Sequence record: NZ_CP123987.1
DNA: 64,000 nt
Direction: 5' to 3' (one strand)
From: a plasmid
Shown here: positions 1-61,239 of the stretch, piece by piece
Layout: each line of letters begins with the position of its first letter
Position numbering within the stretch: position 1 is the stretch's first letter
Notes under the pieces: model-generated
Databases searched by the model: none
Told to the model about the DNA's origin: nothing
The model's input: the letters and a program-made list of their open reading frames with translations, nothing else
Made by a program: the position numbers and the translations under genes

Positions 1-11
1 GCTTAAATAAT

Positions 12-797
12 GTGGCTAATTTACAATTAGATAGCAATGGTGATTACCAAGTCTACACTAATAATAAAGACTTTAGTGTATCTGGAGAAGCTACTGATAA
101 TTTGGACGGATATTGTTTCTTCTTCAATGGAGATAATGATTATCGCGAATTCCACAATTCTGGTGTGAACTTTGTTACTGAAGCACATCAAGATGGAAGC
201 ACAGTAACTAATCCATATCCAGCATATAAGTTTAGCAAGACATTTAATTTAGCTGATACAACTGGCGAAACAACACACGTATATACATTGAGTGTAGTTG
301 ACTTGACAGGTAATACTGTAACTAGGAAGTTCTATGTTCACTATCAACCAGCTAGTGATACAGTTAAGACTGTAACAACTGATAAAGATGGTGCAACTAA
401 AGTACTAGTAGATTACAGTAACAATACATTGCAAGTAAAAGATAATACTGGTAGCTGGGTAAATGCTACTGGAGTCGAAGCTGCTAAGGATTATCGAGTA
501 GTTAATGAATACGGTAATGTAGTGTTGCTACTAAATGTTCTTGTAGATAAAGAACAAGACAATAATAAAGTACAAGTTAATGAAGTTACAAATAATAAAG
601 TAGAACAAACAGTAGTAACTAAGACTGTTTCAAATAAATCTGTAGCTAAAGTGGGCAAAAAAGCTGCAGAACCAGTAAAAGTATTACCACAAACTGGTGA
701 AAATAACAGTAAATCTACTTCTGTTCTAGGTGCAGTCTTAGCCTCAATCGCAGGATTCTTAGGTGCATTAGGCTTAAGACGTGTTAAAAAAGATTAA
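12..797 (+). CDS. LPXTG-anchored cell-surface protein, C-terminal part (5' end outside window)
   Basis: ORF starts at window edge; C-terminus has LPQTG sortase motif, hydrophobic segment and RRVKKD tail; T/V/N-rich surface-protein composition. Confidence 0.7.
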   Translation: MANLQLDSNGDYQVYTNNKDFSVSGEATDNLDGYCFFFNGDNDYREFHNSGVNFVTEAHQDGSTVTNPYPAYKFSKTFNLADTTGETTHVYTLSVVDLTGNTVTRKFYVHYQPASDTVKTVTTDKDGATKVLVDYSNNTLQVKDNTGSWVNATGVEAAKDYRVVNEYGNVVLLLNVLVDKEQDNNKVQVNEVTNNKVEQTVVTKTVSNKSVAKVGKKAAEPVKVLPQTGENNSKSTSVLGAVLASIAGFLGALGLRRVKKD

Positions 798-3441: not shown

Positions 3442-3540
3442 CTATATTTTTTTAGAAATTGGTAATTTAATGACAATTTGGCGGAAATCTCCTTACTTTA
3501 GTGAGGGGATGGATAGCCTAAGCCTAGGACTCGTAGAGTC

Positions 3541-3972
3541 CTATTTTTTATATGCATTATATTTTTGGTCGTTAATATATCTCTCAACAACATCTTTACT
3601 CATGCTACCTAGAGAGCCTAGATAATAGCTAGAAGACCATAAATGACCGCCCCAATATTGTTTTTGTCTAATTTCTGGATGTGTTTGTAAGAATAGGAAT
3701 GCACTTCTGCCTTTTAGTGCTTTGATTACGTCTATTGCTGATTTTCTTGGTGGAAATGAAATAAGCATATGTACATGGTCTGGCATTACTTCCATTTTTT
3801 CAATGACTATTTCATTGTCGTCAGCTACTCTTTGTAGAATATCTTTCATTTCGTTAGATAACTTTTCATTTGTAAAAGTCTTATTTCTGTATTTTGTACA
3901 CCAAATTAAGTGAAAATGTAAATTATACACATAACGTTTTGTGTATATTGCGTCTTTTATTTTATTAGTCAT
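3541..3972 (-). CDS. tnpA: IS200/IS605 family transposase TnpA (Y1 HUH)
   Basis: 143 aa with HVHMLISFPP (HuH) motif and conserved Tyr-containing C-terminus typical of IS200 TnpA. Confidence 0.85.
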   Translation of the reverse strand: MTNKIKDAIYTKRYVYNLHFHLIWCTKYRNKTFTNEKLSNEMKDILQRVADDNEIVIEKMEVMPDHVHMLISFPPRKSAIDVIKALKGRSAFLFLQTHPEIRQKQYWGGHLWSSSYYLGSLGSMSKDVVERYINDQKYNAYKK

Positions 3973-4071: not shown

Positions 4072-5349
4072 ATGAAGAAGATGAGTGATTTAGAGTATCA
4101 TTATGGATTGAAAATGCGTATTTATCCAAGCACTAACCAAAAGAAGATTATTAAAATCAATGGTAACATTGCTAGAACTGTTTATAATAAAATGGTTGCT
4201 ATTGACCAAGAATTATACAAGTTAAAACAAGTTAAGTTACCTATTGATATTGTTAAGGAACGTATTAAAGAATTAAAAAGTCGTAAAAACGCTAGAAATT
4301 TGTCTAATCATTATCAGTACATGCAAGATAAGAATATTGATAGTTTAGCTAAAGCTAACGCTATTCAAAATTATCAAAAAGCGTGGAAGATGTTTAGAAA
4401 AGTACATTTATCTGGTACACCTAAGTTCCATAAAAAGAGTTACCGTTTGAGTTATCAAACTAATGCTCAATATGGTAAAGATGCTAAAATGGACGTTTAT
4501 TCTGCTAGCGTAAAATTTCTTGATAAGAATCATATTAGTTTGCCTAAATTAGGTAGATTAAGAGTATCTGGTTCTCACCGTCGTATTATTGACAATAAAG
4601 ATGATATTAGAATCGGTACTGTTACTATCTCTAAAGATACAGCTGATAGATATTTCGTATCAATGCAATTAGGCTCTGATACACCATTTGTAAAGAAATT
4701 AGCTAAAACTAATTCTCAAGTTGGTGTTGATTTGAATACAGAGAATTTTTTGACCGATAGTTTTGGTAAAGTGGTAGCTAATCCGCGTTATTACCGTACT
4801 ATTAAAGGTAAAATAGCTAAAGCTCAAAAAGTATTATCTAGAAGGCAAAGAAGAGCTAAAAAAGAAAAACGTTCTTTACGTGATAGTAAAAATTATCAAA
4901 AACAAAGAGTTTTAGTAGCTAAGCTCCATGACAGAGTGCGCAATCAACGTAATAACTTTTTGAATCATGTTACTACTGCACTTATCAATAACCACGATTT
5001 GGTGGTAGTAGAAAATTTGAGAAGTAAAAATATGCTCAAGAATCATGCTTTAGCTATGTCTATATCCGATGTTGGCTGGAGAAGCTTTTTACAGAAATTG
5101 GATTATAAAGCTAATTTGTATAACAGAACAGTTATATCAGTTAATCCTAAAAATACAACACAGACTTGTTATGCTTGTGGCTTTATAATGGGAACAAATG
5201 GAACTGATAAGTTGAATCTCAAGGATAGAGAATGGACTTGTCCTAATTGTCATGAACACCATATTAGAGATTGGAATGCAGCTAAAAATATTCTAGCTAA
5301 AGGATTAGACAAGTTAGAAAAACCAAAAAACTTAGCTAAAGCTAAGTAA
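4072..5349 (+). CDS. tnpB: IS605/IS1341-type TnpB (OrfB) RNA-guided nuclease-like protein
   Basis: 425 aa; RuvC-like core with C-terminal zinc finger CYACG..CPNCHEHHIRDWNAAKNI. Confidence 0.85.
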   Translation: MKKMSDLEYHYGLKMRIYPSTNQKKIIKINGNIARTVYNKMVAIDQELYKLKQVKLPIDIVKERIKELKSRKNARNLSNHYQYMQDKNIDSLAKANAIQNYQKAWKMFRKVHLSGTPKFHKKSYRLSYQTNAQYGKDAKMDVYSASVKFLDKNHISLPKLGRLRVSGSHRRIIDNKDDIRIGTVTISKDTADRYFVSMQLGSDTPFVKKLAKTNSQVGVDLNTENFLTDSFGKVVANPRYYRTIKGKIAKAQKVLSRRQRRAKKEKRSLRDSKNYQKQRVLVAKLHDRVRNQRNNFLNHVTTALINNHDLVVVENLRSKNMLKNHALAMSISDVGWRSFLQKLDYKANLYNRTVISVNPKNTTQTCYACGFIMGTNGTDKLNLKDREWTCPNCHEHHIRDWNAAKNILAKGLDKLEKPKNLAKAK

Positions 5350-9226: not shown

Positions 9227-11146
9227 TTGGAGGGAAAAAGTATGCAACGATATATATTAAGCAAGAAAAATGTTATCACCGTCATCAGTGGCTTGTTAAT
9301 CGCACTCGGTTTCTTCAGTCACTTTGTTTTAGAAAACGTAGGACTTTCAGAGTGGTCTTTGATCATTGCCTCTGTCTTTGGGATTACGCCAATTGCCATT
9401 CAAGCATTTCAAGCAATGAAAGTCAAAGTCATCAGTATTGATGTCTTAGTCAGTATTGCAGCGATTGGTGCGCTTTTTATTCAAGATTATGAAGAATCGG
9501 CTATTGTCACGTTCTTATTCTTATTCGGACACTACTTGGAACAACGAACATTGAACCAAACGCGATCTGCTATCAAAGAATTGACTGAAATGGCACCCGA
9601 AAGCGCCTTGAAACAAATGGATAATGGCAAATTTGAAGAAGTAGAAGTGGATGATGTAGATGAAGGGGATATCTTGCTCGTTAAAACGGGTGCGAAAGTT
9701 CCAGTAGATGGCACAGTCCTTACGGGCGAAGGGCATATCAATGAAGCTAGCATTACAGGGGAAGCTGTTCCGGTCAACAAGCTAGCTGATGCAGAAGTTT
9801 TTGCAGGAACCATTTTAGAAAACGGAACGATTCAAATCAGAGCTGACCGAGTTGGTGAGGACACCACATTTGGAAAAATTATTGAACTCGTGGAAGAAGC
9901 ACAAGATTCTAAATCCGAAGCGGAACGGTTCATTGATCGCTTTTCTAAATACTATACACCAGCTGTCTTGGTTCTGGCAATTGTTGTATGGGCGTTCAGT
10001 CAAAATATTGAGTTAGCAATCACCATCTTGGTTCTAGGTTGCCCAGGCGCATTAGTTATCGGAGTGCCTGTCTCAAACGTTGCCGGTATCGGGAATGGTG
10101 CTCGTAACGGTGTTCTTTTAAAAGGGAGTGAAGTCATTCAAGACTTCAGCAATGTGGATACAATTGTATTTGATAAGACAGGTACTTTAACTGTCGGAAA
10201 CCCAACCGTTGCAGCGACTGAACTGTATGAAAAAGATTCTGCTGAAACGCTTGGCTATCTGGCCAGTGTGGAACGGGAATCAGATCATCCATTAGCAAAA
10301 GCAGTCTTAAACCAAATTGGAGAAACAAATTTTTATCCTGTTGAAGGAACTGAAGTCGTGAAAGGCGGCGGAATCGTTTCAAGCGTAGCTGGACATAGAG
10401 TGGCTGTTGGGAATGTGGCCTTGATGGAAAAAGAAAATGTCACTCTCAGCAAAAAAGTGCAAAAAGATGTCAAACGGTTTGAACAACAAGGGAACTCTCT
10501 CGTTTTGACAGCGGTCGATGGTGAATTAAAAGTACTGATGGGCATTCGCGATCAAGTCCGTCCGGGTGTGAAAGCTAATTTGCAGGAATTAAAAGACTTG
10601 GGCGTGAAAAATCTAGTCGTTCTTTCAGGAGATAACCAAGGAACCGTTGATGTGGTCGCCGGCGAACTTGGTTTGACCGAAGCTCACGGCCACATGTTGC
10701 CGGAAGACAAAGCGGCTTATATCGGAAAACTACAACAACGTGGTCAAATTGTAGCCTTTGTTGGAGATGGCGTTAACGATAGTCCGTCCTTAGCTTTAGC
10801 AGACATTGGAATCGCAATGGGAAGCGGAACGGACGTAGCGATTGAAACATCCGATGTCGTTTTAATGAACTCGAACTTCAGCAACTTGCCTCACGCATTA
10901 GGATTAGTAAAAGCCACCGTAAATAATATGAAACAAAATATCGTGATTTCAATTGGAGTAGTGTTGGTCTTGTTGACCAGCGTCTTCTTCAGCGAATGGA
11001 TGAATATGTCTATCGGAATGTTGGTTCATGAAGGTAGTATCTTGGTGGTAATTTTCAATGGCATGAGATTAACGAAGTATAAGTTGAAAGGTCGAAAAGA
11101 ACAAAAAGAAGTATCAACACCTGCAGAGAAAGTAAAAATATCTTAA
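9227..11146 (+). CDS. heavy-metal-translocating P1B-type ATPase (no N-terminal HMA domain; specificity unclear)
   Basis: 639 aa; DKTGTLT phosphorylation motif, GDGVNDSPSLA, TGES-like actuator region, CPG in TM6; GC-richer than surroundings. Confidence 0.85.
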   Translation: MEGKSMQRYILSKKNVITVISGLLIALGFFSHFVLENVGLSEWSLIIASVFGITPIAIQAFQAMKVKVISIDVLVSIAAIGALFIQDYEESAIVTFLFLFGHYLEQRTLNQTRSAIKELTEMAPESALKQMDNGKFEEVEVDDVDEGDILLVKTGAKVPVDGTVLTGEGHINEASITGEAVPVNKLADAEVFAGTILENGTIQIRADRVGEDTTFGKIIELVEEAQDSKSEAERFIDRFSKYYTPAVLVLAIVVWAFSQNIELAITILVLGCPGALVIGVPVSNVAGIGNGARNGVLLKGSEVIQDFSNVDTIVFDKTGTLTVGNPTVAATELYEKDSAETLGYLASVERESDHPLAKAVLNQIGETNFYPVEGTEVVKGGGIVSSVAGHRVAVGNVALMEKENVTLSKKVQKDVKRFEQQGNSLVLTAVDGELKVLMGIRDQVRPGVKANLQELKDLGVKNLVVLSGDNQGTVDVVAGELGLTEAHGHMLPEDKAAYIGKLQQRGQIVAFVGDGVNDSPSLALADIGIAMGSGTDVAIETSDVVLMNSNFSNLPHALGLVKATVNNMKQNIVISIGVVLVLLTSVFFSEWMNMSIGMLVHEGSILVVIFNGMRLTKYKLKGRKEQKEVSTPAEKVKIS

Positions 11147-11385: not shown

Positions 11386-11667
11386 ATGCCCAAGAAAACA
11401 TATACTGATGAATTTAAAACAGATGCCGTAAACTATTATTATGATAGTGGACTTTCTATTAATACCACTGCTAAAAAACTAGGAGTAAGCATCAGTGCAT
11501 TAAGAAAATGGATTAAATTATCAAAAAAAGATGGATCAGTGATAACTAGAGGAAGTGGAAATTATTCTAGCGATAAAGATAAAGAGATTGTAAGATTAAA
11601 AAGACAATTAAGAGACGCAGAAGGAGCGATTGAAGTACTAAAAAAAGCAATAAGCATTCTGGGATAG
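11386..11667 (+). CDS. IS3-family transposase OrfA (HTH)
   Basis: 93 aa; HTH then leucine-zipper-like C-terminus typical of IS3 OrfA. Confidence 0.8.
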   Translation: MPKKTYTDEFKTDAVNYYYDSGLSINTTAKKLGVSISALRKWIKLSKKDGSVITRGSGNYSSDKDKEIVRLKRQLRDAEGAIEVLKKAISILG

Positions 11668-12569
11668 TAACAACGGAAGAAATTTATAAGAATATAAAAG
11701 AAGTAAGTGAAAATTCTAAACAAAAGCCTACTGTAGCTGGAATGCTTAAACGTATAGGATTATCAAAATCAGGATATTATAGACATAAGTCTAAAGGATT
11801 GAGTAAATCAAAAGAACGTCAGCTAAAAATCAAGGATCTTATCATGGAAATATGGGAAGAAAGTCAGCACCTTTATGGTGCACCCAAAATTACAGCTAAA
11901 CTAAGAAAAATGGGCATACAAATTTCTGAACGTACTGTTGGAAAATATATGAAAGAACTAAAAATACGTGCAAAGTACTGTAAACCCTTTACTGTAACTA
12001 CTAGAGATTCCAACCTTAATAATAAATTGAAAAACACCCTAGATGAACAATTTAATCCTGAAGCACCTGATACGATTTGGTGCATTGATACAACTTATAT
12101 TCCAACTAAAGAAGGATTTGTATATCTAACTAGTATCATGGATTTGTTTTCACGGCGTATAATTTCTTGGGATTTATCAACTACATTGGAGACCACAAAT
12201 ATAATATCTCTTATAAATAAAGTGAAAGCTACTCGTAAGAGTAATCCAAAAATTATTCATAGTGATAGAGGTAGTCAATTCACCTCTAAAGAGTATTGCG
12301 AAATAACAGCTGGAATAACAAGAAGTTATTCAAAGAAAGCTTATCCGTGGGATAATGCTTGTATTGAGTCTTTTCACGCTATAATTAAGCGTGAATGCTT
12401 AAATGAATATAATATCAGTTCATATAATAAAGCTAGACGATTAGTATTTTCATATATAGATGGTTTTTATAATACGGTGAGAATTCATAGCCATTGTGGC
12501 TACATATCACCATTAGAATTTGAACAGACATACTTTGATAAAGTACAAAAAGTAAATAAAGCAGCTTAA
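11634..12569 (+). CDS. IS3-family transposase OrfB (DDE integrase), made as OrfAB fusion by -1 frameshift
   Basis: reading frame opens at 11634 overlapping orfA; A6G slippery motif; DDE core (WCIDTTYI, HSDRGSQFTS, ESFHAIIKRE). Confidence 0.8.
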   Translation, partial: STKKSNKHSGIVTTEEIYKNIKEVSENSKQKPTVAGMLKRIGLSKSGYYRHKSKGLSKSKERQLKIKDLIMEIWEESQHLYGAPKITAKLRKMGIQISERTVGKYMKELKIRAKYCKPFTVTTRDSNLNNKLKNTLDEQFNPEAPDTIWCIDTTYIPTKEGFVYLTSIMDLFSRRIISWDLSTTLETTNIISLINKVKATRKSNPKIIHSDRGSQFTSKEYCEITAGITRSYSKKAYPWDNACIESFHAIIKRECLNEYNISSYNKARRLVFSYIDGFYNTVRIHSHCGYISPLEFEQTYFDKVQKVNKAA

Positions 12570-49643: not shown

Positions 49644-49910
49644 TTACAAATCTGGTTCTAAGTTAATTACAATGTTCTGCTTGTAAGGTTTTTCAGGAGT
49701 CATATTGTGATTTTTGCAACACTCAAAATAATCATCAATTGTATCTTCAAAATCATCTTTCAATTCTTGTAATGTATTTCCTTCATAGGATAATAAACTT
49801 CTAATCCCCAAAACTTCGCCATGTAAAATATTATCCTCTAAAGAATACTCTATTGTTCCTTTGTAACCTCTATAGCTCATGACTTCTTGCATTTTTATGT
49901 TTCCTTTCAA
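49644..49910 (-). CDS. hicB: HicB-family antitoxin-like protein
   Basis: 88 aa; YSLEDNILHGEVLGI...GNTLQELKDDFEDTIDDYFE pattern typical of HicB. Confidence 0.55.
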   Translation of the reverse strand: MKGNIKMQEVMSYRGYKGTIEYSLEDNILHGEVLGIRSLLSYEGNTLQELKDDFEDTIDDYFECCKNHNMTPEKPYKQNIVINLEPDL

Positions 49911-49913
49911 TTA

Positions 49914-50195
49914 TTATCTATTTAACTGTATAGTCCAAGTTAAATTGAATAAAAAAACAACATCCCCGTCAACAACGAGGATGTCTTCGATTGTGGTATG
50001 TAGAACCTTACTGAGAATGACTAAGTTATCCAAACTAGGTAGTGATCTACCAGATAACCATTTATAAATGGATTGTGGGTTCTCAAATCCCATAACTGAT
50101 TGAATATCACGTACACTGTACCCATTATTTTTGAATAAACTTTTTAGATTAGCACCAGTTTTTTCTGAATTTATCGAAACATACATTGGCTTCAT
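49914..50195 (-). CDS. small XRE-like HTH regulator
   Basis: 93 aa; HTH-like LKSLFKNNGYSVRDIQSVMGF..IYKWLSGRSLPSLDNLVILSKVL; 3-bp gap to the HicB-like gene. Confidence 0.5.
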   Translation of the reverse strand: MKPMYVSINSEKTGANLKSLFKNNGYSVRDIQSVMGFENPQSIYKWLSGRSLPSLDNLVILSKVLHTTIEDILVVDGDVVFLFNLTWTIQLNR

Positions 50196-50972
50196 GAAAT
50201 CACCTCAATTTAATTATACATACCTCGAACATTTAATACCAAAAATAGCCAACGCAAAATTTGCATTGACTAAAAATTATGTAAACCGACGCGTATTGGC
50301 TTACGTGGGATACTCTTGTATCTGGACTTATTAGACTACTGAATCAGACTAGCACATCATGGCTAGCAACTTCCATGACCTAGTCCGCATTTCAAGTTCA
50401 GGGCATAGACCTTTTCCTATCCAATTTTCACCAAACATGTGCAATGTTCCAGTTAATGTAATATTGTCGATTTTGGCTACTCAAACCTTACTCGTCAGTT
50501 ATAGCTGTGTCACCACAACTTCACGACACGAATTCTTAGTTGATATTCTTCTTTGGTTCCTAAGGTAATCAGCCTTAATTAACTGAAGATGGCATATTGC
50601 GAATCCCTGACGGCAAGTGTCTTAGTTTCAGATATGAGTCCCCTTGCTTCTCTCTACACAACTTTTTTTCGTTGCTCCCAATTAGTACATTAGAAAAAAT
50701 AAACGTATCCGTATATTTCGTCATAGTAGTTATTAAGAGACGTATGGCTAGGCGGCTTGTCACACCTCATCCACTAGCTTCATCGGTACACTTATATACT
50801 AACAAAGCTTAGGTCATTAAACTATAAACTGTTAGGTTAATTTGGGCGATTTCGACATAGGACCAATTTCTTAATTTATGCAAAATAAACTTTGATATCG
50901 CTTTATTTGCATAAATTTTAGAATTTCTCCTGTGTCTAATATTCAAAATTAGCTTTTCATCACCCCAAAATA

Positions 50973-51626
50973 TCAGTCTATTCTTTCTAATTCTATACTT
51001 CTAAAGATGAAATAATCTAAAATTGTTAATATCAAAATCCACATTGCACTAAAATAAAGTTTACTATTATCTGCATGAATCAAATAGTTAATAGGCCATG
51101 CTACGAAACACCAATAGGCTGACATTAAAGTTTTATTACTAGCAAAAATAATAAATAAAATCTCTACTAATGAAAATACTAAATTTATATATTTATTAGT
51201 AACCATATATAAAAACATGTGACTATGATTAAGTAATACTATCAATAGCCACATTGCTATTCCGCTGATTATCCCTAATTTAACTTGGGCTATGGAATAA
51301 CTTATTATCCACCATACAAAAAATGAAATCCACCATAATAATAAGTCTAAGATTAACGTTTTTATTGTAAGTAATTTCACTTGACTATACTTACGAACTT
51401 CTTGAAAATTATTTGCTTCTCTTTCTTGTTCAAAGCATATATTAGTTATCACAGAAATTAAAGATGGATAAGCTAGAGCAAATGCCAGTACAATATTTTT
51501 ATAAGTTAGTAAATTTCGATGCCAATACAAATACCCGTAGGCTGATGCAATTTCAAAAATAGTGAAACTTACTAATAGGTATATAGTAGGACTACTTTTT
51601 AATTTTAATAATTCACTTCTAATCAT
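50973..51626 (-). CDS. nisG: lantibiotic immunity ABC transporter permease, NisG homologue
   Basis: 217 aa, 6 TM; last gene of a nisFEG-like triplet. Confidence 0.75.
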   Translation of the reverse strand: MIRSELLKLKSSPTIYLLVSFTIFEIASAYGYLYWHRNLLTYKNIVLAFALAYPSLISVITNICFEQEREANNFQEVRKYSQVKLLTIKTLILDLLLWWISFFVWWIISYSIAQVKLGIISGIAMWLLIVLLNHSHMFLYMVTNKYINLVFSLVEILFIIFASNKTLMSAYWCFVAWPINYLIHADNSKLYFSAMWILILTILDYFIFRSIELERID

Positions 51627-52335
51627 TTGATTTACCCCATCTTGTAAAATATATTAAAAGTAAAGATATCAATAATGAAAGTAATACAGGACTCATAACA
51701 TCAAAAAGTTGTAAATTTATAATTTTAAAAATTCCTGAGGGCTGTACCCCTAATAGATACTGTGATATTTTATAATGGTACGAGTATGGAAATGCAAACC
51801 ACCATTGTGTTTGAGAAATGATAGATCCAAATAATAAACATACTAACGTATTAACTGCTATAAGCAAATAGCCATTTATAAAATTAGCTAAAAAATATAA
51901 CCACGGTATATTCCAAAATACAGATAACAATAACAGAAATATACTTAGTATACTTTTACTTAGTAATAATTCTGTATAACCACTAAAAAACTTATTTAAG
52001 ACAATTACTAGTATTATAAAAAAAAGACTTGATATTGCAACTCGTACAAAGATTAAGAAAATTTTTGCCAAATAAATTTGGAAACTCCACAAATTATACT
52101 TAACATTTTGAAAGTTTCCTGCTTTTTTCTCCATATTAAAATCCATTAAAAATAATAATCCTATTAGTAGGTATAAAAAAACAGATTCCCACCAATATAT
52201 GGCAAAAGGAGAAAAAATAATTACTCCCCCTACTAAAAAAGCAATTAAACCCGTTAATAAAGGGATGATCCATAAAAGTTTGTTTATTCTAACTTTTTTT
52301 AATTTCAATATTTCAGAAAACAAAGCTTTTATCAT
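51619..52335 (-). CDS. nisE: lantibiotic immunity ABC transporter permease, NisE homologue
   Basis: 238 aa multi-TM, overlapping F and G genes. Confidence 0.75.
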   Translation of the reverse strand: MIKALFSEILKLKKVRINKLLWIIPLLTGLIAFLVGGVIIFSPFAIYWWESVFLYLLIGLLFLMDFNMEKKAGNFQNVKYNLWSFQIYLAKIFLIFVRVAISSLFFIILVIVLNKFFSGYTELLLSKSILSIFLLLLSVFWNIPWLYFLANFINGYLLIAVNTLVCLLFGSIISQTQWWFAFPYSYHYKISQYLLGVQPSGIFKIINLQLFDVMSPVLLSLLISLLLIYFTRWGKSND

Positions 52336-53024
52336 ATGAAACTCTCTCCCTTCATAACATTAAAGAAAATCTCTTCAATATCTTTATAATTACTTTGAAT
52401 TTTATCATATACAACATGTCCTTTATCTAAAATGATAACTTGATCGACGATTCTTCCAATTTCATGTAGCTGGTGACTTGATATCAAAATAGTTACACCT
52501 TGTTTTTTTAATGACTTTAGTAAATCTAAAAATTCAATAACCCCATCAGGATCTAATCCGTTAATTGGTTCATCGAGAATTATAAATTTAGGTTGTGTTA
52601 AAATAGCCATTCCGATCCCCAATCTTTGTTTCATGCCAACTGAAAATTTACCTGCATGTTTTTTATCCGTGCTATCTAAACCAACTCTTTTTAAAACATC
52701 TTTAATTTGATTATTTGGAATATCATATAAAAGTGCTTTAGTTTTTAAATTATCAAAAGCTGATAAATTCGAATAAATTGGTGGTTGTTCAATCAAAGCA
52801 CCAATGTTACTAGTTTTTCCGTGACCTTCAAATAGTACTTGTCCTTTATCTGGTATTTCAATCCCATAAATAATTTTCATTAAAGTTGATTTTCCAACAC
52901 CATTCATCCCAAATAAACCACAAATAGTACCTTTTTCAATCGTAAAGCTTACATCCTTTAATACTTCTCTATCCTGGTATTTCTTAGAAATATTTTTCAC
53001 TTCAATTTTCATCTTATATATCAC
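52332..53024 (-). CDS. nisF: lantibiotic immunity ABC transporter ATPase, NisF homologue
   Basis: Walker A GMNGVGKST, signature SVGMKQRLGIGMAIL; high similarity to recalled NisF (ALIEQPPIYSNLSAFDNLKTKALL). Confidence 0.85.
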   Translation of the reverse strand: MIYKMKIEVKNISKKYQDREVLKDVSFTIEKGTICGLFGMNGVGKSTLMKIIYGIEIPDKGQVLFEGHGKTSNIGALIEQPPIYSNLSAFDNLKTKALLYDIPNNQIKDVLKRVGLDSTDKKHAGKFSVGMKQRLGIGMAILTQPKFIILDEPINGLDPDGVIEFLDLLKSLKKQGVTILISSHQLHEIGRIVDQVIILDKGHVVYDKIQSNYKDIEEIFFNVMKGESFI

Positions 53025-53075
53025 CTTATCTTTAATTATTCGGTAATAGTATAAGTAATTAAATTCATAATTAGA

Positions 53076-54242
53076 TCAGAATTTCTGGATTCCTAACTTT
53101 ACACTCACCCCATCATTTACTAGATTTGTAATTATCATGGTACCACCATGTCTGACTGCAACCGCTTGTGCAAAAGATAGTCCAATTCCATAATGCTTTC
53201 CACTACGGCCTTTATCTTCAGTAAAAAATAACTTTTGCGCATTAACTTGTGCTTCTTCTGAAAATGGTGCCCCATTATTCCATATTTCAAACCATAAAAA
53301 TTTTAAATCTTCAGTTACAGTAACCGATACTTGGGGATTACTTTTATCCGCATACTGACACGCATTAAGAAAAATGTTGATTAGTGCTCGTTTTAGAGCT
53401 GGAACATTAGCATGAAATTTCTTTAAATTAGTTTTTACCTTTAATCGATTATTCGTTTTGTTGACTATGGCAATATCTGTTAGTTCAAGAAAAAGTTCTT
53501 TAATAAATTCATTTAAATTTATTTCTTCGCTTATTGAATTTAAATTTAGTAACTTAGTATAATTAATCATTGTATTAAAATAATTTTCTAAAGTTTGAAT
53601 ACTGTTTTTCATAGATTCCATAAATTCTAATTGTCTCTTATCAGGATTAGTCAGTTCCAACAACTCTATATTTCCTTTTAATACAGTAAGTGGTGTTTTT
53701 ATATCATGAGATAATGCTGCTACCTGAAATGATAAATCTTCTTTTTCTATCCGTTCAGTCTCAATTAAAGTTGATAACTCATTACTTTTTTGATAGAGTT
53801 GCTTTAATACAGTATCAAATTCTTTAATTTTCGACTTAGGATAATCTTTAGTAACCTTATTCCCCATATTTAAAGCAATCTTTTGAATAGCTGTAAAATT
53901 TTTTGAAATCTCATGAATTAGTTTATAAATTGCAATAATGATTATTAATGATTCGTATATAATCAAAAATATATATGATATTTGATTATACGAAAACTTT
54001 CTCAAGACTGGATTAGTAAATTCCGGAACACTATTTTGTCTAATCACTAAGCTATATAACTTATTAGAAGATATAGTATAACTTGTAGTCCCATTTATAT
54101 AACTTTTATTCTTTACTTTAGCTAAGTAGTAATTATCTTTATCATTTTTTTGATATCTACTTGCTACAATTTTTCCTGTTCTCCTATCGAATACAATAAA
54201 GTCATAAGGATATTTTTTCATCGTTTGCCTAATATCCGTCAA
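53076..54242 (-). CDS. nisK: sensor histidine kinase, NisK homologue
   Basis: 388 aa; H-box LSHDIKTPLT and HATPase domain; paired with a NisR-like regulator. Confidence 0.8.
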   Translation of the reverse strand: MTDIRQTMKKYPYDFIVFDRRTGKIVASRYQKNDKDNYYLAKVKNKSYINGTTSYTISSNKLYSLVIRQNSVPEFTNPVLRKFSYNQISYIFLIIYESLIIIIAIYKLIHEISKNFTAIQKIALNMGNKVTKDYPKSKIKEFDTVLKQLYQKSNELSTLIETERIEKEDLSFQVAALSHDIKTPLTVLKGNIELLELTNPDKRQLEFMESMKNSIQTLENYFNTMINYTKLLNLNSISEEINLNEFIKELFLELTDIAIVNKTNNRLKVKTNLKKFHANVPALKRALINIFLNACQYADKSNPQVSVTVTEDLKFLWFEIWNNGAPFSEEAQVNAQKLFFTEDKGRSGKHYGIGLSFAQAVAVRHGGTMIITNLVNDGVSVKLGIQKF

Positions 54243-54265
54243 AGTAGTTTTATTAGAATCTAATA

Positions 54266-54895
54266 CTAAATAAACTTTATTCGGATTTGATATATATATT
54301 CGGAAATAGATCCAAATAAAGTTTCTGCATATTCGTCATATACATTATTATAAATGTCTTCACGACTATAAATATGAGAAGTCCTTCGTGAGAGCAATTC
54401 TAAAATATCATATTCACGACTAGTCAAAGGAATATCTTGACTATTAACGCATACCCTTCGTTCTTCCAAATAAAAAGTTATTTTCCCCATATCACGCTTA
54501 ACTTCTGCGAAATCCCGAACTGCTTGACGACTACGTTCTTCTCGTTTAATATTTGCATCAATTTTAGCTAATAACTGTTTCAAACTAAAAGGTTTGGTTA
54601 TATAATCATCACCACCAATTTTTAAACCATATAAAATATCTTCTTCATCATCTTTAGCACTTATAAAAATAATTGGCGTTGAAATCTTAGAACGAATCTG
54701 ATAACAAATTTCAGTTCCTGATATCTTTGACATCATAATATCTAATAAAATTAAATTAAAACCCTCAAAATCTGATAATTTTAACGGAACATGAACATTT
54801 TGGCAAGTTACAACCTCATAATTTTTCATTTCTAATGCTGTTTTCATAAGTTTTAAAATTTCTACATCATCATCTATAACTAAGATTCTATACAT
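54266..54895 (-). CDS. nisR: OmpR-type response regulator, close NisR homologue, C-terminus about 20 aa shorter than NisR
   Basis: MYRILVIDDDVEILKLMKTALEMKNYEV...ITKPFSLKQLLAKIDANIKREER...YLEERRVCVNSQDIPLTSREYDILELLS..ISEYIYQIRIKFI matches recalled NisR nearly colinearly; stops right after IRIKFI whereas NisR continues into the winged-helix wing. Confidence 0.8.
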   Translation of the reverse strand: MYRILVIDDDVEILKLMKTALEMKNYEVVTCQNVHVPLKLSDFEGFNLILLDIMMSKISGTEICYQIRSKISTPIIFISAKDDEEDILYGLKIGGDDYITKPFSLKQLLAKIDANIKREERSRQAVRDFAEVKRDMGKITFYLEERRVCVNSQDIPLTSREYDILELLSRRTSHIYSREDIYNNVYDEYAETLFGSISEYIYQIRIKFI

Positions 54896-54931: not shown

Positions 54932-56152
54932 TTAAAAATCATCAAATAACATTAATGATTTCATCCATTGCGTTTTCCCTTTATTTGAAAAACACTCATT
55001 TAAAGTTAAAATAATACCCGTTGTTCCCTCAAGAAAGCCTAAATTTCGAATATCTTTGTCAAAAATACTTTCTATTTCATCAGTATAGTTATTTATAAAT
55101 GTATCAAATTTTCTCGTTTTTGTAAGTTTCCTAAATAAAATGCATATCGAAACTATCCCTGACTTGCCATGACAAATCATGTTGGAATCTACATTCCGCA
55201 TTTCCTTAGTAGCTCTATATAGTATTTCTATTGCTTTTTTTATAAGGTATGAATTATCTTGAATTAGTCCAATATATAAATATAAAACACTTATTCCTGG
55301 ACTACCGTAACACCATGCGTCTCTTATAAATAAATCATTATCTTTTAAAATTGTTCTATTATTAACCAATTCATTATAATCTATTCCATCTTTCCAATGA
55401 AATTTATTCTTATCAACTAATTCAAATTTTTCATAAATCTGAATAATCCTTTCTAATCCGTGTAATATTTCCTTTTTCATAAAGCCCTTTTTATACGCAT
55501 AAGCCAATACACTTCCTACACCAGCAAGTCCATGTGACATACCTGTATTTAGACAACCATTAGGATAAATTTCGTTTTCTGCCTCTGACATTTGGTTACC
55601 TGTTTTAATATACATCGCTATCAATGAATCATTATCATCTAATAAGGTTAATAAAAAAATAATAATTTTTGTCACTAATTTGATATCTATATTATCTATT
55701 AAAAGCAGATACATGAGAATTCCTGATAATCCTTCAATCACATCATAATTAGGTGGAGTAACATTTCCAATATTAAACTCTCCAATTTCTTTGTCTACAT
55801 AATAACTAATGTAATCATTTAGACTTGCAATTAAATTTTGAAATCTCAAATCTTTTTTGAGTGGTAATAAACTTAATGCAATCCCAGCTGCACCTGAATA
55901 TAGAGAACCTGTTAAAAGTCCATATTTTGATAACTTTCCATATAAATAGTCACAATACTAATCAATTTTGGACTTATATGTCCTATCTAAATCTTCCATC
56001 TCTAATAACAGTAAAATAACCCCTGGTAATCCCGAAGAAAGCGTGAATTCTTCGAAATTGTATCGATAAGCATTCTGTTCAATTCTCCTGTCCCATTCTA
56101 ATATCACTCTGCCAAATTTATTTTTTAAAATTTTTCTTTTTATTTCTTCCAT
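54932..56152 (-). pseudogene. nisC: nisC-like lanthionine cyclase (LanC) interrupted by in-frame TAG at 55958-55960
   Basis: ORFs 55958..56152 (N-terminal 64 aa) and 54932..55849 (WCYGSPG and CHGKSG zinc-ligand motifs) are in the same frame, separated only by an amber codon (+ strand cta at 55958-55960); the combined length of about 406 codons matches LanC. Confidence 0.65.
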
Positions 56153-57938
56153 ATTTTTCTGCCCAATATAGTTCTTGATAGAAACTACAATCTTTTAAAA
56201 GTTCTTCATGAGTTCCAATACCTACTACTCTTCCTTTATTCATAACAATTATTTTTGATGCCTTACGAGCTACATTTAAATCATGTGAGATAAAAATAGA
56301 TATATTATCTTTGGATAGATTTACAAAATAATCAAATATTTCTTTTTCTGAAATTGGATCTAGCGCTGCACTTGGTTCATCTAATATATATACAGAAGCA
56401 TTTTTAAAAAAAGCTCTAGCCAAAGCTATTTTTTGCCACTGACCACCTGATAATTGCCTCCCATTTTGGAACCAAGTTCCTAATTGTAAATTTAAATTAT
56501 ATTCTCCATTCTCTTTTAAAAAATTTAACCTTAATTTATCCATAATATGTATAATCTTATTATCATCCCACTTCTCTGCAATATTACCAAGACCAATATT
56601 TTCCCTTAAAGTTAGCTCATATTTAACAAAATCTTGGAATAATATCGATATATTCTTTTGATAAAAATCTGTCGATATATGCTTATCTTCAATACCGTTA
56701 TAATATATATGACCTTTAGATGGTGTGTATAACTCTGAGATTAACTTTACTAGAGTACTTTTACCAGATCCATTTTCCCCTATTATCGCAATTAGTTCCC
56801 CTGTATGCATAGAAAAGTTTATTTTTTCTAAAGCATTGACAGAAGAGTTAGGATACTTATATTCAACATCTATTAGATCTATCCTTTTTATTCTGTTCTC
56901 ATCACCTATCCCTATGTTTTCACGATAATCACTTTGATTTTCTATTTTCAAAAAATTAAGTAATTGCTCCATAAACAAACTAGTATTATAAATAATATAA
57001 ATATTTTGTATGATTGTTTGTGAATAGCCATTTATCTTTGTAATTGCTTGCATAAGACTAACTAAATTTCCTATTAATATTCTTCCAGCTTGTACAGATA
57101 CTATAATAGTGCATATAACAAAAATATTGATAAAGTCTAATAAAATTTGAAGTCCCGAATTAAAATATGCTTTCTTTCTAGCAATAAGCAAATCTTGTAA
57201 TATAAAATCTTTTTTTAATTTCTTATACTCTTCCACAAAATAATCACTTAAATTATTTAATTTAATTTCCTTAAAAGAAAAGTCATGTGTCAATAAATAA
57301 ACTATATACCACGACTTTCTTTCTGCACTCGCTCTTTTCCATTGTATTAAAAATTCAAGTTGACCTACTTTTAAAAATATAATTAAAGATAACATAGGAG
57401 TTACTAATAACAGCAATCCTATCCATATGTTCCACGCCGCAACAAAAATCAAACTAGTCAGTAAAGATATAAAAGCAGCCAGCATAGTAATAACAGCATT
57501 AAAAAGTTGAAATGGTTTATACGTACTATCCTGTGTTATTTTCTCAATAAGATTATACATATCTGATTGTTCATAATCTGTCAACTTTAAGGAGGTTGTT
57601 TTTTTTATCAATTTTAAATTAATATTGTAAGAAAGCCACATATTAAATTTTCCGTTTATATAATTTTCTAATTGAGATAATATTACCGTAAATATTTGTA
57701 GTATTAAAAAATAAATAATATTATATACAAGCTGCATTCCTCGACTAAATATACTATTGATCAGATTTTGATAAACTATTAAATTTAATAGCGGAATTAA
57801 TGCCGTTACTATATTTAAGCACATTAAGTATGTTGCATATTTTCTTTCTAATTGAAAAATTAACTTAATCGTATCTGGAAGTGTTAATAATGTCTTAAAA
57901 AAATTTTTTGATGTTAGTTTTTTTATTTCATCCATCAT
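56118..57938 (-). CDS. nisT: lantibiotic ABC exporter without peptidase domain, NisT homologue
   Basis: 606 aa; 6-TM domain plus C-terminal ABC (GENGSGKST, LSGGQWQKIALARAF); overlaps nisB stop and nisC start. Confidence 0.85.
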   Translation of the reverse strand: MMDEIKKLTSKNFFKTLLTLPDTIKLIFQLERKYATYLMCLNIVTALIPLLNLIVYQNLINSIFSRGMQLVYNIIYFLILQIFTVILSQLENYINGKFNMWLSYNINLKLIKKTTSLKLTDYEQSDMYNLIEKITQDSTYKPFQLFNAVITMLAAFISLLTSLIFVAAWNIWIGLLLLVTPMLSLIIFLKVGQLEFLIQWKRASAERKSWYIVYLLTHDFSFKEIKLNNLSDYFVEEYKKLKKDFILQDLLIARKKAYFNSGLQILLDFINIFVICTIIVSVQAGRILIGNLVSLMQAITKINGYSQTIIQNIYIIYNTSLFMEQLLNFLKIENQSDYRENIGIGDENRIKRIDLIDVEYKYPNSSVNALEKINFSMHTGELIAIIGENGSGKSTLVKLISELYTPSKGHIYYNGIEDKHISTDFYQKNISILFQDFVKYELTLRENIGLGNIAEKWDDNKIIHIMDKLRLNFLKENGEYNLNLQLGTWFQNGRQLSGGQWQKIALARAFFKNASVYILDEPSAALDPISEKEIFDYFVNLSKDNISIFISHDLNVARKASKIIVMNKGRVVGIGTHEELLKDCSFYQELYWAEKYGRNKKKNFKK

Positions 57939-60898
57939 TATTTCCCTTTCAAAATATATTTTTCAGACATAATCATTTTTTTTACAATAAAATACAGATT
58001 TTGTTCCCTAACCCTATTAATTCCAAATAACCTATTATTATGTACATGTATAATACTATCCATAATAGTGTCAGCATTTTTTTTATCAATTATTAATTTT
58101 AGTTTTTTAATCTCTTCCTTAAGTCTATTAAAGTTGTATTTGTCAATCTCATATATGTCAGTTAACTGATTAAATACTACACTTTTATAGTATTGTATTT
58201 TAGACCTTACATTTTTATCTACCTTATTGGGACAGACTTTATCTAGAAAACATAAAATGTCTTCATTTGTTTTATAAAATATTTTTAAATAAAAATAAAT
58301 CATTGCAACTGCAATATCATCAAGTTTATCTTCCATGTTCTTTTCTTTTATAAATTTCAAATACTTTATTACAAGTTTAGAATCTTCACAGAAAATATTT
58401 TCAGCTATATCTATTGCATTAACTCCTCCATATCTCTCAATTTCGCGATCATATGTAGAAATATCAAAAGTCGATAAAATACCATTTCTATGACCTTGCT
58501 CCAAATCTTTTTTAATAACTTCATATATTTTATATAAATTATTACCACTTATCCTTATCCTTATTTGTGGTACTGGATCCATATAACGTAAGAAAAATAG
58601 TTTTCCGTCTAATTTTTCTACCTTTTTTTGAATCAGAGGTATGTAAACTCGTATAAACTCTTCTTGTCTCCTAGTCGACATATACACTTTTAGATATAAC
58701 CAATCATTGAATGGCAATTTCTCTCGAACATGTTTGGAGATTCTCTGTTGTTTTTCCTTGTTTACTTTTTTAACATCGAATTTACTATTAATAACTGGAA
58801 CCACTATCTCTGATATTTTTCCTTCACTATCTTTATATATCATGTCTTTATTATTAAAATATTCTTGTATAATGGCATGACCATTCTTTTCTATATTTCT
58901 TTTTATTTCTGACATAAACAGTTCAACATCAAGTGAATTTTTACGATTAATATATAGTTTGTTATCACCGTCAACAATATAAATTTCATTCGGTATATTT
59001 CTCTGCTTTATAATCGACTCTATTGCTATATTACTTAATTCAAATTTAAATATTCTCCATGTCTTAGGACTGACTACTATATCCTCAAACATAATTCGTG
59101 GAATAAAATTCATATCTTTATAGATTAAATCCCATGGTACATATCCAAAATTATTATTTATTGAAATTTCACATAAAAATCTTAGTTCATTACTAAATAA
59201 TGTCTTGTTATACATGCTTGTTACATAAAACTTCATTTTTTCTTGAGTAGACACATCATACGCATAAAAATTTTCATTTTCATCTAATCCAATATAAATA
59301 TTAGTTAGCCTTACTTCAGATTGATCAGTACTTGAGAAAATAGGAAGAACTTTTTCTCTTACAAAAGATGTTCGCATTATATTAGCGTGTCGTATATTTT
59401 CAGGAAGAAAAACTATTTCACAAGACGTCACCCCTTCTTCAATATTTGCAGCTTTCACTTGTTTAAGTGTCTTCATGTGATAATCCCTTAATTTATCTGA
59501 TAATAATGAGAACCTTCCAGAGGATCCCCCTATATTATTACTGCCTATAATATTGCTTAATGCTAAAGTTTTCTTCTTATTAATTTGGACCATATGAAAA
59601 AATAATTCTATTCCTTGTATTGAGGTACTTTCTTTGGAATTCAGATTTCTATAATAATTAGAAAAGCATTTCAAATTAATTTCCTCTCTATTTAATAAAG
59701 CTTCTATATATTTATTAATATACATTTCTTTTTCATCATGGGAATAATATGACGTTGGAGGCTCTAATTCAAAAACTTCATTCTGAGGATGCGTATAATC
59801 ATACGGTGCGCCAATTCCTTTTATTGGATCAAATAGTTCTATTAACTGCACATCTTGATCAATACCATATTTTTCAATGAATTTATCTTTATAGTCATCA
59901 AAATAAGTCCTAGTTACTGATTTAACAGTATTAGTTATAAAATTTGAAAATTTCTCTATTCTTTGTTTATTACTATTATCAATATATATATTCCCATCAT
60001 TATATAAATCTACTTGAATATAATTATCACTTTTATTAAGTCTAGCCATTTGGTGATATATTTCAATTAATTTATCAGAACCCGAACCTATTTCAATATG
60101 TGTATATTCTTCAATTAACTCTTGTATCTTTGTTAATATTTCTACATATTTTTTACTAACATCTATTTCCCTAACTTTCATTATGAAGTCTGACATAGAA
60201 AAATTAATTAGTATATTTTCTTGTAAATTTGATATTAGATAATGATTCTCTACTAAATCATTAATATATTCTTTTGTTAAATTTAAGTATTCATTACCAT
60301 ATATTGTTATAACCTTTTCTATGATTTCACTATATGTCTTATAAGTTTGGCTACACTCTTCTGATATAATTCGATAAACTTTAGAGTTATTAATACTAAC
60401 TTCCTCTAAATCTTGATCATTTATTGAATATAATTGCATAACACGATTTCCACTAATGTAATTTCCATTATTAGATATGAAAGATAAGTTTGATTGATAG
60501 TCCTTTTCTAATTTAAAAATTACATCTGTTAACCATTTAATATCTATAAAAACTACTTTGTGTGTTTTCCCTAATTCTTTCTTATCACCCTTAACGGTAA
60601 ATTTACCATTAGAAGTTTCACTAAATAGTCCAAAAGGAGTTGCTCGATAATAGCTCCTTTTATAATATTTATATATTGATTCAAAAAAATTTTTTTCTTT
60701 CTTTTTCTTTAGTTTTCCTGCATTATACTTTTTAAGCATTCCATACAGCTTAGGATTAGCCAATAATATTTGTTCAAGAAAAATATTATCATTTTTAATA
60801 ATTTCAATAAATTCCTTATAATTATTGAAATTTTGACTTTTTTCATATGTTTGAATTGTATTACGTATCATTACATCACTAACATTGAAATTATTCAT
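57938..60898 (-). CDS. nisB: class I lantibiotic dehydratase, NisB homologue
   Basis: 986 aa; N-terminal FLEQILLANPKLY, FESIYKYYKRSYYRATPFGLFSETS, EIVFLPENIRHANIM and C-terminal HVHNNRLFGI segments colinear with recalled NisB. Confidence 0.9.
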   Translation of the reverse strand: MNNFNVSDVMIRNTIQTYEKSQNFNNYKEFIEIIKNDNIFLEQILLANPKLYGMLKKYNAGKLKKKKEKNFFESIYKYYKRSYYRATPFGLFSETSNGKFTVKGDKKELGKTHKVVFIDIKWLTDVIFKLEKDYQSNLSFISNNGNYISGNRVMQLYSINDQDLEEVSINNSKVYRIISEECSQTYKTYSEIIEKVITIYGNEYLNLTKEYINDLVENHYLISNLQENILINFSMSDFIMKVREIDVSKKYVEILTKIQELIEEYTHIEIGSGSDKLIEIYHQMARLNKSDNYIQVDLYNDGNIYIDNSNKQRIEKFSNFITNTVKSVTRTYFDDYKDKFIEKYGIDQDVQLIELFDPIKGIGAPYDYTHPQNEVFELEPPTSYYSHDEKEMYINKYIEALLNREEINLKCFSNYYRNLNSKESTSIQGIELFFHMVQINKKKTLALSNIIGSNNIGGSSGRFSLLSDKLRDYHMKTLKQVKAANIEEGVTSCEIVFLPENIRHANIMRTSFVREKVLPIFSSTDQSEVRLTNIYIGLDENENFYAYDVSTQEKMKFYVTSMYNKTLFSNELRFLCEISINNNFGYVPWDLIYKDMNFIPRIMFEDIVVSPKTWRIFKFELSNIAIESIIKQRNIPNEIYIVDGDNKLYINRKNSLDVELFMSEIKRNIEKNGHAIIQEYFNNKDMIYKDSEGKISEIVVPVINSKFDVKKVNKEKQQRISKHVREKLPFNDWLYLKVYMSTRRQEEFIRVYIPLIQKKVEKLDGKLFFLRYMDPVPQIRIRISGNNLYKIYEVIKKDLEQGHRNGILSTFDISTYDREIERYGGVNAIDIAENIFCEDSKLVIKYLKFIKEKNMEDKLDDIAVAMIYFYLKIFYKTNEDILCFLDKVCPNKVDKNVRSKIQYYKSVVFNQLTDIYEIDKYNFNRLKEEIKKLKLIIDKKNADTIMDSIIHVHNNRLFGINRVREQNLYFIVKKMIMSEKYILKGK

Positions 60899-60977: not shown

Positions 60978-61157
60978 CTATTTACTTATATGTACATGAC
61001 AACCACATGATGCAGTTTTCATTGTACATCCCATTAGTGCACCTGTTTTGCAACCTGGGGTACAAAGTGAGTAGCTTGTAATTTTAACTGAATAATTTGA
61101 ATTTGTACTTTCCTTTGATACTTTTACTAAATCCAATTTAAAATCATTAACACTCAT
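60978..61157 (-). CDS. nisA: nisin-family class I lantibiotic precursor peptide (59 aa), not in the supplied ORF track
   Basis: own translation of the reverse strand: MSVNDFKLDLVKVSKESTNSNYSVK-ITSYSLCTPGCKTGALMGCTMKTASCGCHVHISK; GGAGG RBS 8 nt upstream; FNLD-type leader box (FKLDL); all nisin ring-forming Ser/Thr/Cys conserved; directly upstream of nisB. Confidence 0.85.
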   Translation of the reverse strand: MSVNDFKLDLVKVSKESTNSNYSVKITSYSLCTPGCKTGALMGCTMKTASCGCHVHISK

Positions 61158-61221: not shown

Positions 61222-61239
61222 TTTCAGATTTTGTTCAGA
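61222..61239 (-). promoter_or_regulatory. NisR-type direct-repeat operator (TCTGA-N6-TCTGA) in the precursor-gene promoter
   Basis: minus strand reads TCTGAACAAAATCTGAAAA followed by a -10-like TATTATAGT about 45-60 nt upstream of the lanA ATG; same TCT-N8-TCT spacing as the nisA promoter. Confidence 0.6.

Follow-up and report, generated by a model that had tools for sequence, protein, structure and literature searches.

The nisin S cluster of Ligilactobacillus salivarius, a class I lanthipeptide cluster of the nisin group, has been published with the gene order nssABTCRKFEG and without counterparts of nisP and nisI (PMC10095417, PMC13032696). The strain P1CEA3, which carries it on the megaplasmid pMP1CEA3, is a demonstrated nisin S producer (Sevillano et al. 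2023, PMC10095417). The clusters of pMP1CEA3 and of the plasmid pLS2102-15_1 have been described as complete, and that of p612A, from L. salivarius AR612, as having a truncated nssC together with deletions in nssR and nssK (PMC10778751, Foods 2023, section 3.3, Fig. 3b). What the loss of a cyclase means for this type of pathway is known from Lactococcus lactis, in which deletion of nisC leads to the secretion of a dehydrated, ring-less NisA with a 2.2-fold lower yield (PMC7378552).

The DNA analysed here, referred to as the window, is a stretch of 64,000 nucleotides from a plasmid (NZ_CP123987.1), and it holds a nisin S cluster whose cyclase gene, nssC, is interrupted by an in-frame amber codon. 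The explanation preferred in this work, which we regard as very likely, is a genuine loss of function of nssC (Q65 amber) followed by a later deletion in nssR and nssK, leaving a decaying and silent remnant of the nisin S cluster.

Both the precursor and the gene content identify the cluster. The gene nssA (60978..61157, minus strand; PF02052, the gallidermin/nisin family) encodes a precursor with the leader MSVNDFKLDLVKVSKESTNSNYSVK and the core ITSYSLCTPGCKTGALMGCTMKTASCGCHVHISK, which correspond to those of published nisin S, including its unique T20 and S25 (as given in Table S3 of PMC10095417 and in the table of PMC13032696). The lantibiotic dehydratase gene nssB (57938..60898, minus strand; PF04738, PF14028) is intact, with a product of 986 aa found in exactly this sequence on 271 contigs. 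Equally intact, as judged from its ORF and Pfam matches, is the ABC exporter gene nssT (56118..57938, minus strand; 606 aa), whose 3' end overlaps the start of nssC by 35 bp. The genes of the ABC-type immunity transporter, nssFEG (50973..53024, minus strand; nssF at 52332-53024, nssE at 51619-52335, and nssG at 50973-51626), are all intact according to their ORFs, Pfam matches, and comparison with pLS2102-15_1. Taken together, ORFs and Pfam matches give the order ABTCRKFEG, without nisP or nisI, which is colinear with the annotated cluster of pLS2102-15_1.

This colinearity extends far beyond the cluster. Over about 62 kb, the window is 99.96-99.98% identical to pLS2102-15_1 from L. salivarius 2102-15 (NZ_CP090412.1), the differences amounting to 15 SNPs, an A-indel, and a deletion; the same plasmid was the sole match when the copy of PLSDB was searched with the cluster. 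A concentration of mutations within the cluster was considered and rejected, as the amber is the only SNP of the cluster and the deletion its only other difference, the remaining 14 SNPs and the A-indel being outside it, which represents no enrichment. Directly downstream of nssG lie genes (49879-50850, minus strand) for an HTH regulator and for a HicB-family antitoxin, beside which no HicA toxin is annotated in pLS2102-15_1. Positions 1-797 (plus strand) encode the C-terminal portion of a large serine peptidase of the S8 family, whose gene extends beyond the start of the window and measures 4212 bp in pLS2102-15_1 (WP_234057885.1); the nisin S cluster being devoid of nisP, this could conceivably be a leader peptidase, although this is pure speculation. 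Two mobile elements annotated in pLS2102-15_1 are also present, namely an IS200/IS605 element with a 425-aa TnpB (4072-5349, plus strand) and an adjacent tnpA (around 3540-3970), and an IS3-family transposase pair (around 11386-12569).

The cyclase gene occupies positions 54932-56152 on the minus strand, which translate as a single frame of 407 codons, interrupted only once, by a stop at codon 65. The stop is a TAG (55958..55960, minus strand; cta on the plus strand), at which the window has a T and pLS2102-15_1 a C. A comparison with orthologous clusters of related strains, put forward as a check by the first-pass annotation, could be made with this plasmid, in which nssC is intact, encodes 406 aa (WP_143455545.1), and has CAG (Gln) at codon 65. 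The lesion is therefore a single C-to-T transition, at position 55960 on the minus strand, that converts Gln65 into an amber codon. When the two parts are joined with an X at codon 65, the resulting NssC matches the Pfam family PF05147 (LANC_like) over residues 34-396 with 191.5 bits (E = 2e-56), for a cut-off of 23.2, and aligns end to end with NisC from L. lactis (PDB 2G02; E = 5e-123; residues 7-406 of the query with 2-405 of the chain). In the latter alignment, the stop falls opposite the Asn of KKIDNYIEY in NisC, and homology picks up again at the codon directly following the TAG. Since the homology to both NisC and LANC_like is continuous across the TAG, the locus represents one gene with one nonsense codon, that is, a LanC/NisC-type lanthionine cyclase gene of 406 sense codons broken at codon 65, rather than two chance ORFs.

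This result bears on two claims of the first-pass annotation. The observation that a 64-aa ORF (55958-56152) and a 305-aa ORF (54932-55849) share a common frame, with the TAG between them, holds, but the start of the longer ORF has no meaning as a gene feature: it is simply the first TTG past the stop, a product of ORF listing, and homology to NisC resumes well before it. The suggestion that the cyclase had been inactivated by a nonsense mutation is borne out by the CAG of the near-identical plasmid and by the uninterrupted homology. The predicted product of the gene is an N-terminal stub of 64 aa (55958..56152, minus strand), whose overlap with the LANC_like domain comprises only about 31 residues and which contains none of the catalytic residues.

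The zinc ligands of NisC are Cys284, Cys330, and His331, and its catalytic residues His212, Asp141, Arg280, and Tyr285 (NisC numbering). In the alignment with 2G02, the motifs YDVIEG, SHGLAG, RDAWCYG, and MICHG are kept in NssC, all of them downstream of the stop. Hence, the match to the family (PF05147) and the motifs with the zinc ligands and catalytic residues are present, but the uninterrupted reading frame is not, owing to the TAG at a codon that is CAG in the orthologue. Judged from its reading frame, nssC is a pseudogene of a LanC family member and not a functional member. More precisely, it has the properties of a point-nonsense pseudogene, with an intact and near-identical orthologue, a lesion that is reproducible in independent data, and no start codon able to rescue it. 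The intact catalytic motifs downstream of the stop fit a recent lesion. The same can be said of the undamaged remainder of nssC and of the other biosynthetic genes, a state that, taken alone, is also compatible with continued expression of the gene. The supplementary data of PMC10095417 give no size for NssC.

The amber codon is not restricted to the window. In exact-sequence look-ups, 59 contigs (in 106 index blocks) were found to encode the 64-aa stub, with JGI, ENA, and numerous unrelated Logan runs as their sources. The intact 406-aa NssC was found on 574 contigs (1030 blocks), and NssA on at least 1000 contigs. The amber is a real segregating minority allele, which makes up roughly 1 in 10 (~10%) of the public occurrences. 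The C-to-T change is the same in all ten amber loci fetched, each from a different accession. In nine, it is accompanied by one or more private changes (base substitutions or insertions of a single base), and since none of these occurs in two loci, the ten are not copies of one assembly. Altogether, the TAG is common to 13 loci compared. It is regarded as the derived state, because CAG is the majority state and is also found in pLS2102-15_1, a plasmid with a complete cluster (PMC10778751); for this argument, codon 65 was read in pLS2102-15_1, and P1CEA3 is known as a complete cluster from the same publication. No variant linked to either TAG or CAG was found within about 12 kb, and the haplotypes form a star, a shape that fits a single origin of the amber as well as its recurrence.

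The private changes of the amber loci (L002-L011) were determined by comparison with the intact equivalent L001. Among 26 private SNPs, 19 are G-to-A or C-to-T. A hotspot of 5-methylcytosine deamination, conceivable for a mutated C within GATC, found no support, as the contexts of the 26 SNPs share no motif and reveal only a general GC-to-AT bias. The private coding substitutions (n=23) consist of 18 replacement or nonsense changes and five silent ones, a ratio compatible with little or no constraint but also expected among very close relatives, and the amino-acid replacements extend to nssR, nssK, and nssF. Further damage includes stop codons in nssB at Q155 (L008) and R725 (L010), and single-A insertions in nssT and nssC (L004) or in nssC alone (L009), although these insertions could be assembly errors. 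The genes nssR, nssK, and nssFEG are full length in all ten of these loci, which lie outside the lineage of the window. Besides the amber loci, a frameshifted nssB next to an intact nssC was observed in NCBI isolates (L022 and L023; examples are GCA_009866185.1 and GCA_048452405.1), and a truncated NssT of 488 aa on 36 contigs.

The second lesion of the window affects the regulatory genes. With respect to pLS2102-15_1, 203 bp are missing at nssR/nssK. The intact cluster contains two copies, 203 bp apart, of a 26-bp direct repeat, ATATATATCAAATCCGAA[C/T]AAAGTTT, the first situated towards the end of nssR, the second 123 bp into nssK (10856-11084 in the intact equivalent L001). In the window, a lone copy of the repeat remains at the deletion junction (54272..54297, minus strand, as defined against pLS2102-15_1), and the same junction is found in the loci L012-L019. 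This arrangement is the signature of direct repeats between which DNA was deleted by recombination or slippage. The shortened NisR-like regulator reported by the first-pass annotation is thus real, and the start of the kinase gene has been lost with it, a loss that this annotation had missed. The truncated response regulator gene, nssR' (54266..54895, minus strand), encodes 209 aa instead of 229, the missing part being APFKLNPVQTIRGVGYKWYEE at the C-terminus of the winged-helix DNA-binding domain, and its match to the Trans_reg_C profile covers only positions 2-56 of 77. The remnant of the sensor histidine kinase gene, 'nssK (53076..54271, minus strand), has lost the start codon together with the first 49 codons. 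The wild-type NssK begins with MKNKIHSMKWRIWKTAFEIFIETFLGLGLLLAITFIL, and the loss includes its first predicted transmembrane helix, the hydrophobic stretch AFEIFIETFLGLGLLLAITFIL; the 388-aa nssK ORF with a TTG start is a product of ORF listing.

The distribution of this deletion is very different from that of the amber. The 209-aa NssR was found on only 9 contigs, compared with 709 for the 229-aa form, and these come from one NCBI record (WGT61182.1, on a contig of 191,673 bp) and from the consecutive runs SRR26908824-38. The two loci that reach far enough downstream (L012 and L013) share the private SNPs of the window, and the two of the deletion lineage that cover nssC (L012 and L014) both carry the amber codon. 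Because the deletion is always accompanied by a split nssC where this gene is covered, and the amber is widespread, the amber came first, followed by a private deletion in nssR/nssK. The deletion was found only in the lineage of the window and is nested within the amber allele. In L012-L019, it is represented only by short contigs (1-10 kb), and the fifteen consecutive run accessions apparently stem from one project. These runs could be transcriptome or low-coverage data of the strain of the window and, should they be RNA-seq, the broken cluster would be transcribed.

Putative control elements of the cluster include a NisR-box-like direct repeat, TCTGAACAAAATCTGAA (61223..61239, minus strand), located 66 bp upstream of the ATG of nssA, which would represent an NssR-dependent promoter element, and a similar repeat, TCTGATCTAATTATGAA (53064..53080, minus strand), just upstream of nssF. 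Their common pattern, TCTGA-N6-T(C/A)TGAA, resembles the nis-box (NisR box) of PnisA from L. lactis. It has two matches in 64 kb, where 0.29 would be expected, a figure to be read with the fact that the pattern was written after seeing both sites, and the repeats may therefore serve as a lead rather than as a test. A scan of the cluster for sigma-70 promoters gave 81 matches, compared with 82.6 in shuffled sequence, and a terminator scan gave four sites, compared with 1.9 in shuffles, which were not used for any conclusion.

From the two lesions, the following consequences can be proposed. Translation of nssC would stop after 64 residues, upstream of all the catalytic and zinc-binding residues, so that no cyclase would be made. 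Following the example of the nisC deletion in L. lactis, NssA, if expressed, would probably be dehydrated by NssB and exported by NssT at reduced yield, without thioether rings and inactive. According to the nisin literature, such a ring-less NssA would also be unable to act as an autoinducer. The deletion, in turn, would deprive NssR of the wing of its DNA-binding domain and NssK of its start and first membrane helix, and the NisR-box promoters of nssA and nssF should stay off without these two proteins. A cluster in this state would be not only defective but silent, and the inducible immunity conferred by FEG may be lost too. An absence of nisin S production in the strain of the window is predicted from the amber and the nssR/nssK deletion. 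The leaning of the first-pass annotation towards a non-functional cluster is supported by the same two lesions, which have been reported for p612A (PMC10778751). The amber alone may be slightly leaky, given that low-level misreading of UAG by tRNA-Gln could restore the wild-type Gln.

Several other explanations of the interrupted frame have to be weighed against the genuine loss of nssC. A sequencing or assembly error, with CAG as the true codon and an intact cyclase, was among the options listed by the first-pass annotation, and it is in keeping with this option that only one base separates nssC from that of the nearest relative. This option is contradicted by the recurrence of the same TAG on dozens of contigs (the 59 mentioned above) from separate JGI, ENA, and Logan accessions with differing private changes, and by its presence in the runs that share the deletion (L012 and L014). 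In addition, the substitution lies outside any homopolymer, which is atypical of systematic error, and the published analysis of p612A reports the truncation of nssC (PMC10778751), leaving an artefact hardly credible. The readthrough option of the same annotation, extended here to any decoding of the TAG (programmed readthrough, a suppressor tRNA, or an alternative code) that would provide a useful level of full-length cyclase, fares little better and is considered very improbable. UAG is near-cognate to tRNA-Gln, whose misreading would bring back Gln65 as in the wild type, the frame remains open past the stop with none of the catalytic motifs lost, and in six of the ten fetched amber-only loci (L002-L011) the remaining cluster is undamaged. 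Nevertheless, this replicon uses TAG for ordinary termination: 11 of the 46 long ORFs in the window end with it, among them nssE, an oligopeptide-binding protein gene, sufC, and sufD, and the ends of nssE and of the suf genes agree with the RefSeq annotation. Efficient termination is favoured in E. coli when the stop is followed by T, as is the case in nssC. ARAGORN detected no tRNA gene within the window, and around 90% of the occurrences of the site are plain CAG, so that it does not behave as a conserved site of programmed recoding. The amber lineage has moreover gathered further lesions (the nonsense mutations in nssB and the nssR/nssK deletion), as would be expected of a dead gene.

The remaining two explanations accept the stop but not its consequences. 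A split or re-initiated cyclase, in which the stub together with the downstream fragment, or the fragment alone, would still be active, is made conceivable by the location of the zinc ligands and catalytic residues, all in the C-terminal part, by the prediction of a 305-aa ORF with a LANC_like match by gene callers, and by the precedent of a working split NisB (PMC8546558). Such a fragment would need a start, and the first one in frame is the TTG at codon 102, 37 codons past the stop and devoid of a Shine-Dalgarno sequence, with later candidates being no better. The product started there would miss about 100 residues, approximately a quarter of the alpha/alpha-toroid of NisC, as deduced from the 2G02 alignment and the published fold. 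We know of no natural split LanC, nor did one turn up in this analysis, and the chance of an active split enzyme appears very slim. The other explanation sees in the amber a maintained morph, an immune non-producer or cheater that keeps nssRK-FEG in order to sense and resist the nisin S of its neighbours. In a broader version, this morph would exploit producing kin while retaining traces of cyclase through misreading by tRNA-Gln, and the knock-outs of nssB and nssT would represent parallel routes to the same state. Compatible with this idea are the share of the allele in public data (~10% of the occurrences, in many separate accessions), the full-length nssR, nssK, and nssFEG of all ten fetched amber loci outside the lineage of the window, the NisR-box-like sites before both nssA and nssF, and the repeated occurrence of nssB and nssT alleles that have likewise lost their function, in clusters with intact FEG genes. 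Against it, there are no linked variants by which selection could be told from one successful clone or from sampling, the private replacements in the amber loci strike nssR, nssK, and nssF too, and the strain of the window lacks nssRK, which is at odds with maintained sensing. Both the simple and the broader version are therefore judged unlikely, and the decay of a nisin S cluster through the loss of nssC and, subsequently, of nssR/nssK is the explanation retained.

In this sense, the truncation of nssC in a nisin S cluster is an already known, ordinary nonsense pseudogene that has been noted in print, and the amber nssC reveals no new mechanism or system. What is added here is an account of both lesions at the level of single bases, the order in which they occurred, the exclusion of sequencing error, the frequency of the amber (~10%), and the recurrence of other nssB and nssT knock-outs in public isolates. 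The variety of independent disruptions of nssB, nssT, and nssC next to full-length nssFEG suggests a repeated loss of production in L. salivarius. This has practical implications, as genome mining that scores this plasmid as "nisin S positive" would mispredict its phenotype. Strains of L. salivarius are being promoted as probiotics that produce nisin S; the amber is present in about one public cluster in ten, and others show breaks in nssB or nssT. The base at position 55960 (C or T in GAT[C/T]AG) offers a cheap, one-base screen for the amber non-producer allele.

The closest described systems differ from the window to very different degrees. As the prototype of class I lanthipeptide cyclases, NisC from L. 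lactis (2G02/2G0D) shares with NssC an alignment over the full length and the motifs YDVIEG, (A/S)HG, RDAWCYG, and CHG. In contrast to NisC, the reading frame of nssC is interrupted, and the expected phenotype would be that of a nisC deletion, that is, a dehydrated, uncyclised, and inactive peptide. The nisin S cluster of P1CEA3 (pMP1CEA3; PMC10095417) has the same gene order as the window and a corresponding NssA leader and core. The reference clusters and the window also have their surroundings in common, with PTS/sorbitol genes on one side and HTH/HicB/suf genes on the other, and all lie on a megaplasmid of the repA type. Whereas the clusters of P1CEA3 and pLS2102-15_1 are complete, that of the window has the Gln65 amber and the 203-bp deletion. 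The cluster of p612A shows the same pair of lesions as the window, and there is probably no difference between them: as indicated by the matching lesions and by the NCBI accession of the 209-aa NssR, the window very probably is p612A itself. The published description of this plasmid (PMC10778751) does not include the lesions at the level of bases, namely the Q65 amber and the loss of 203 bp between 26-bp repeats, or the frequency of the amber in the population, which the present analysis provides.
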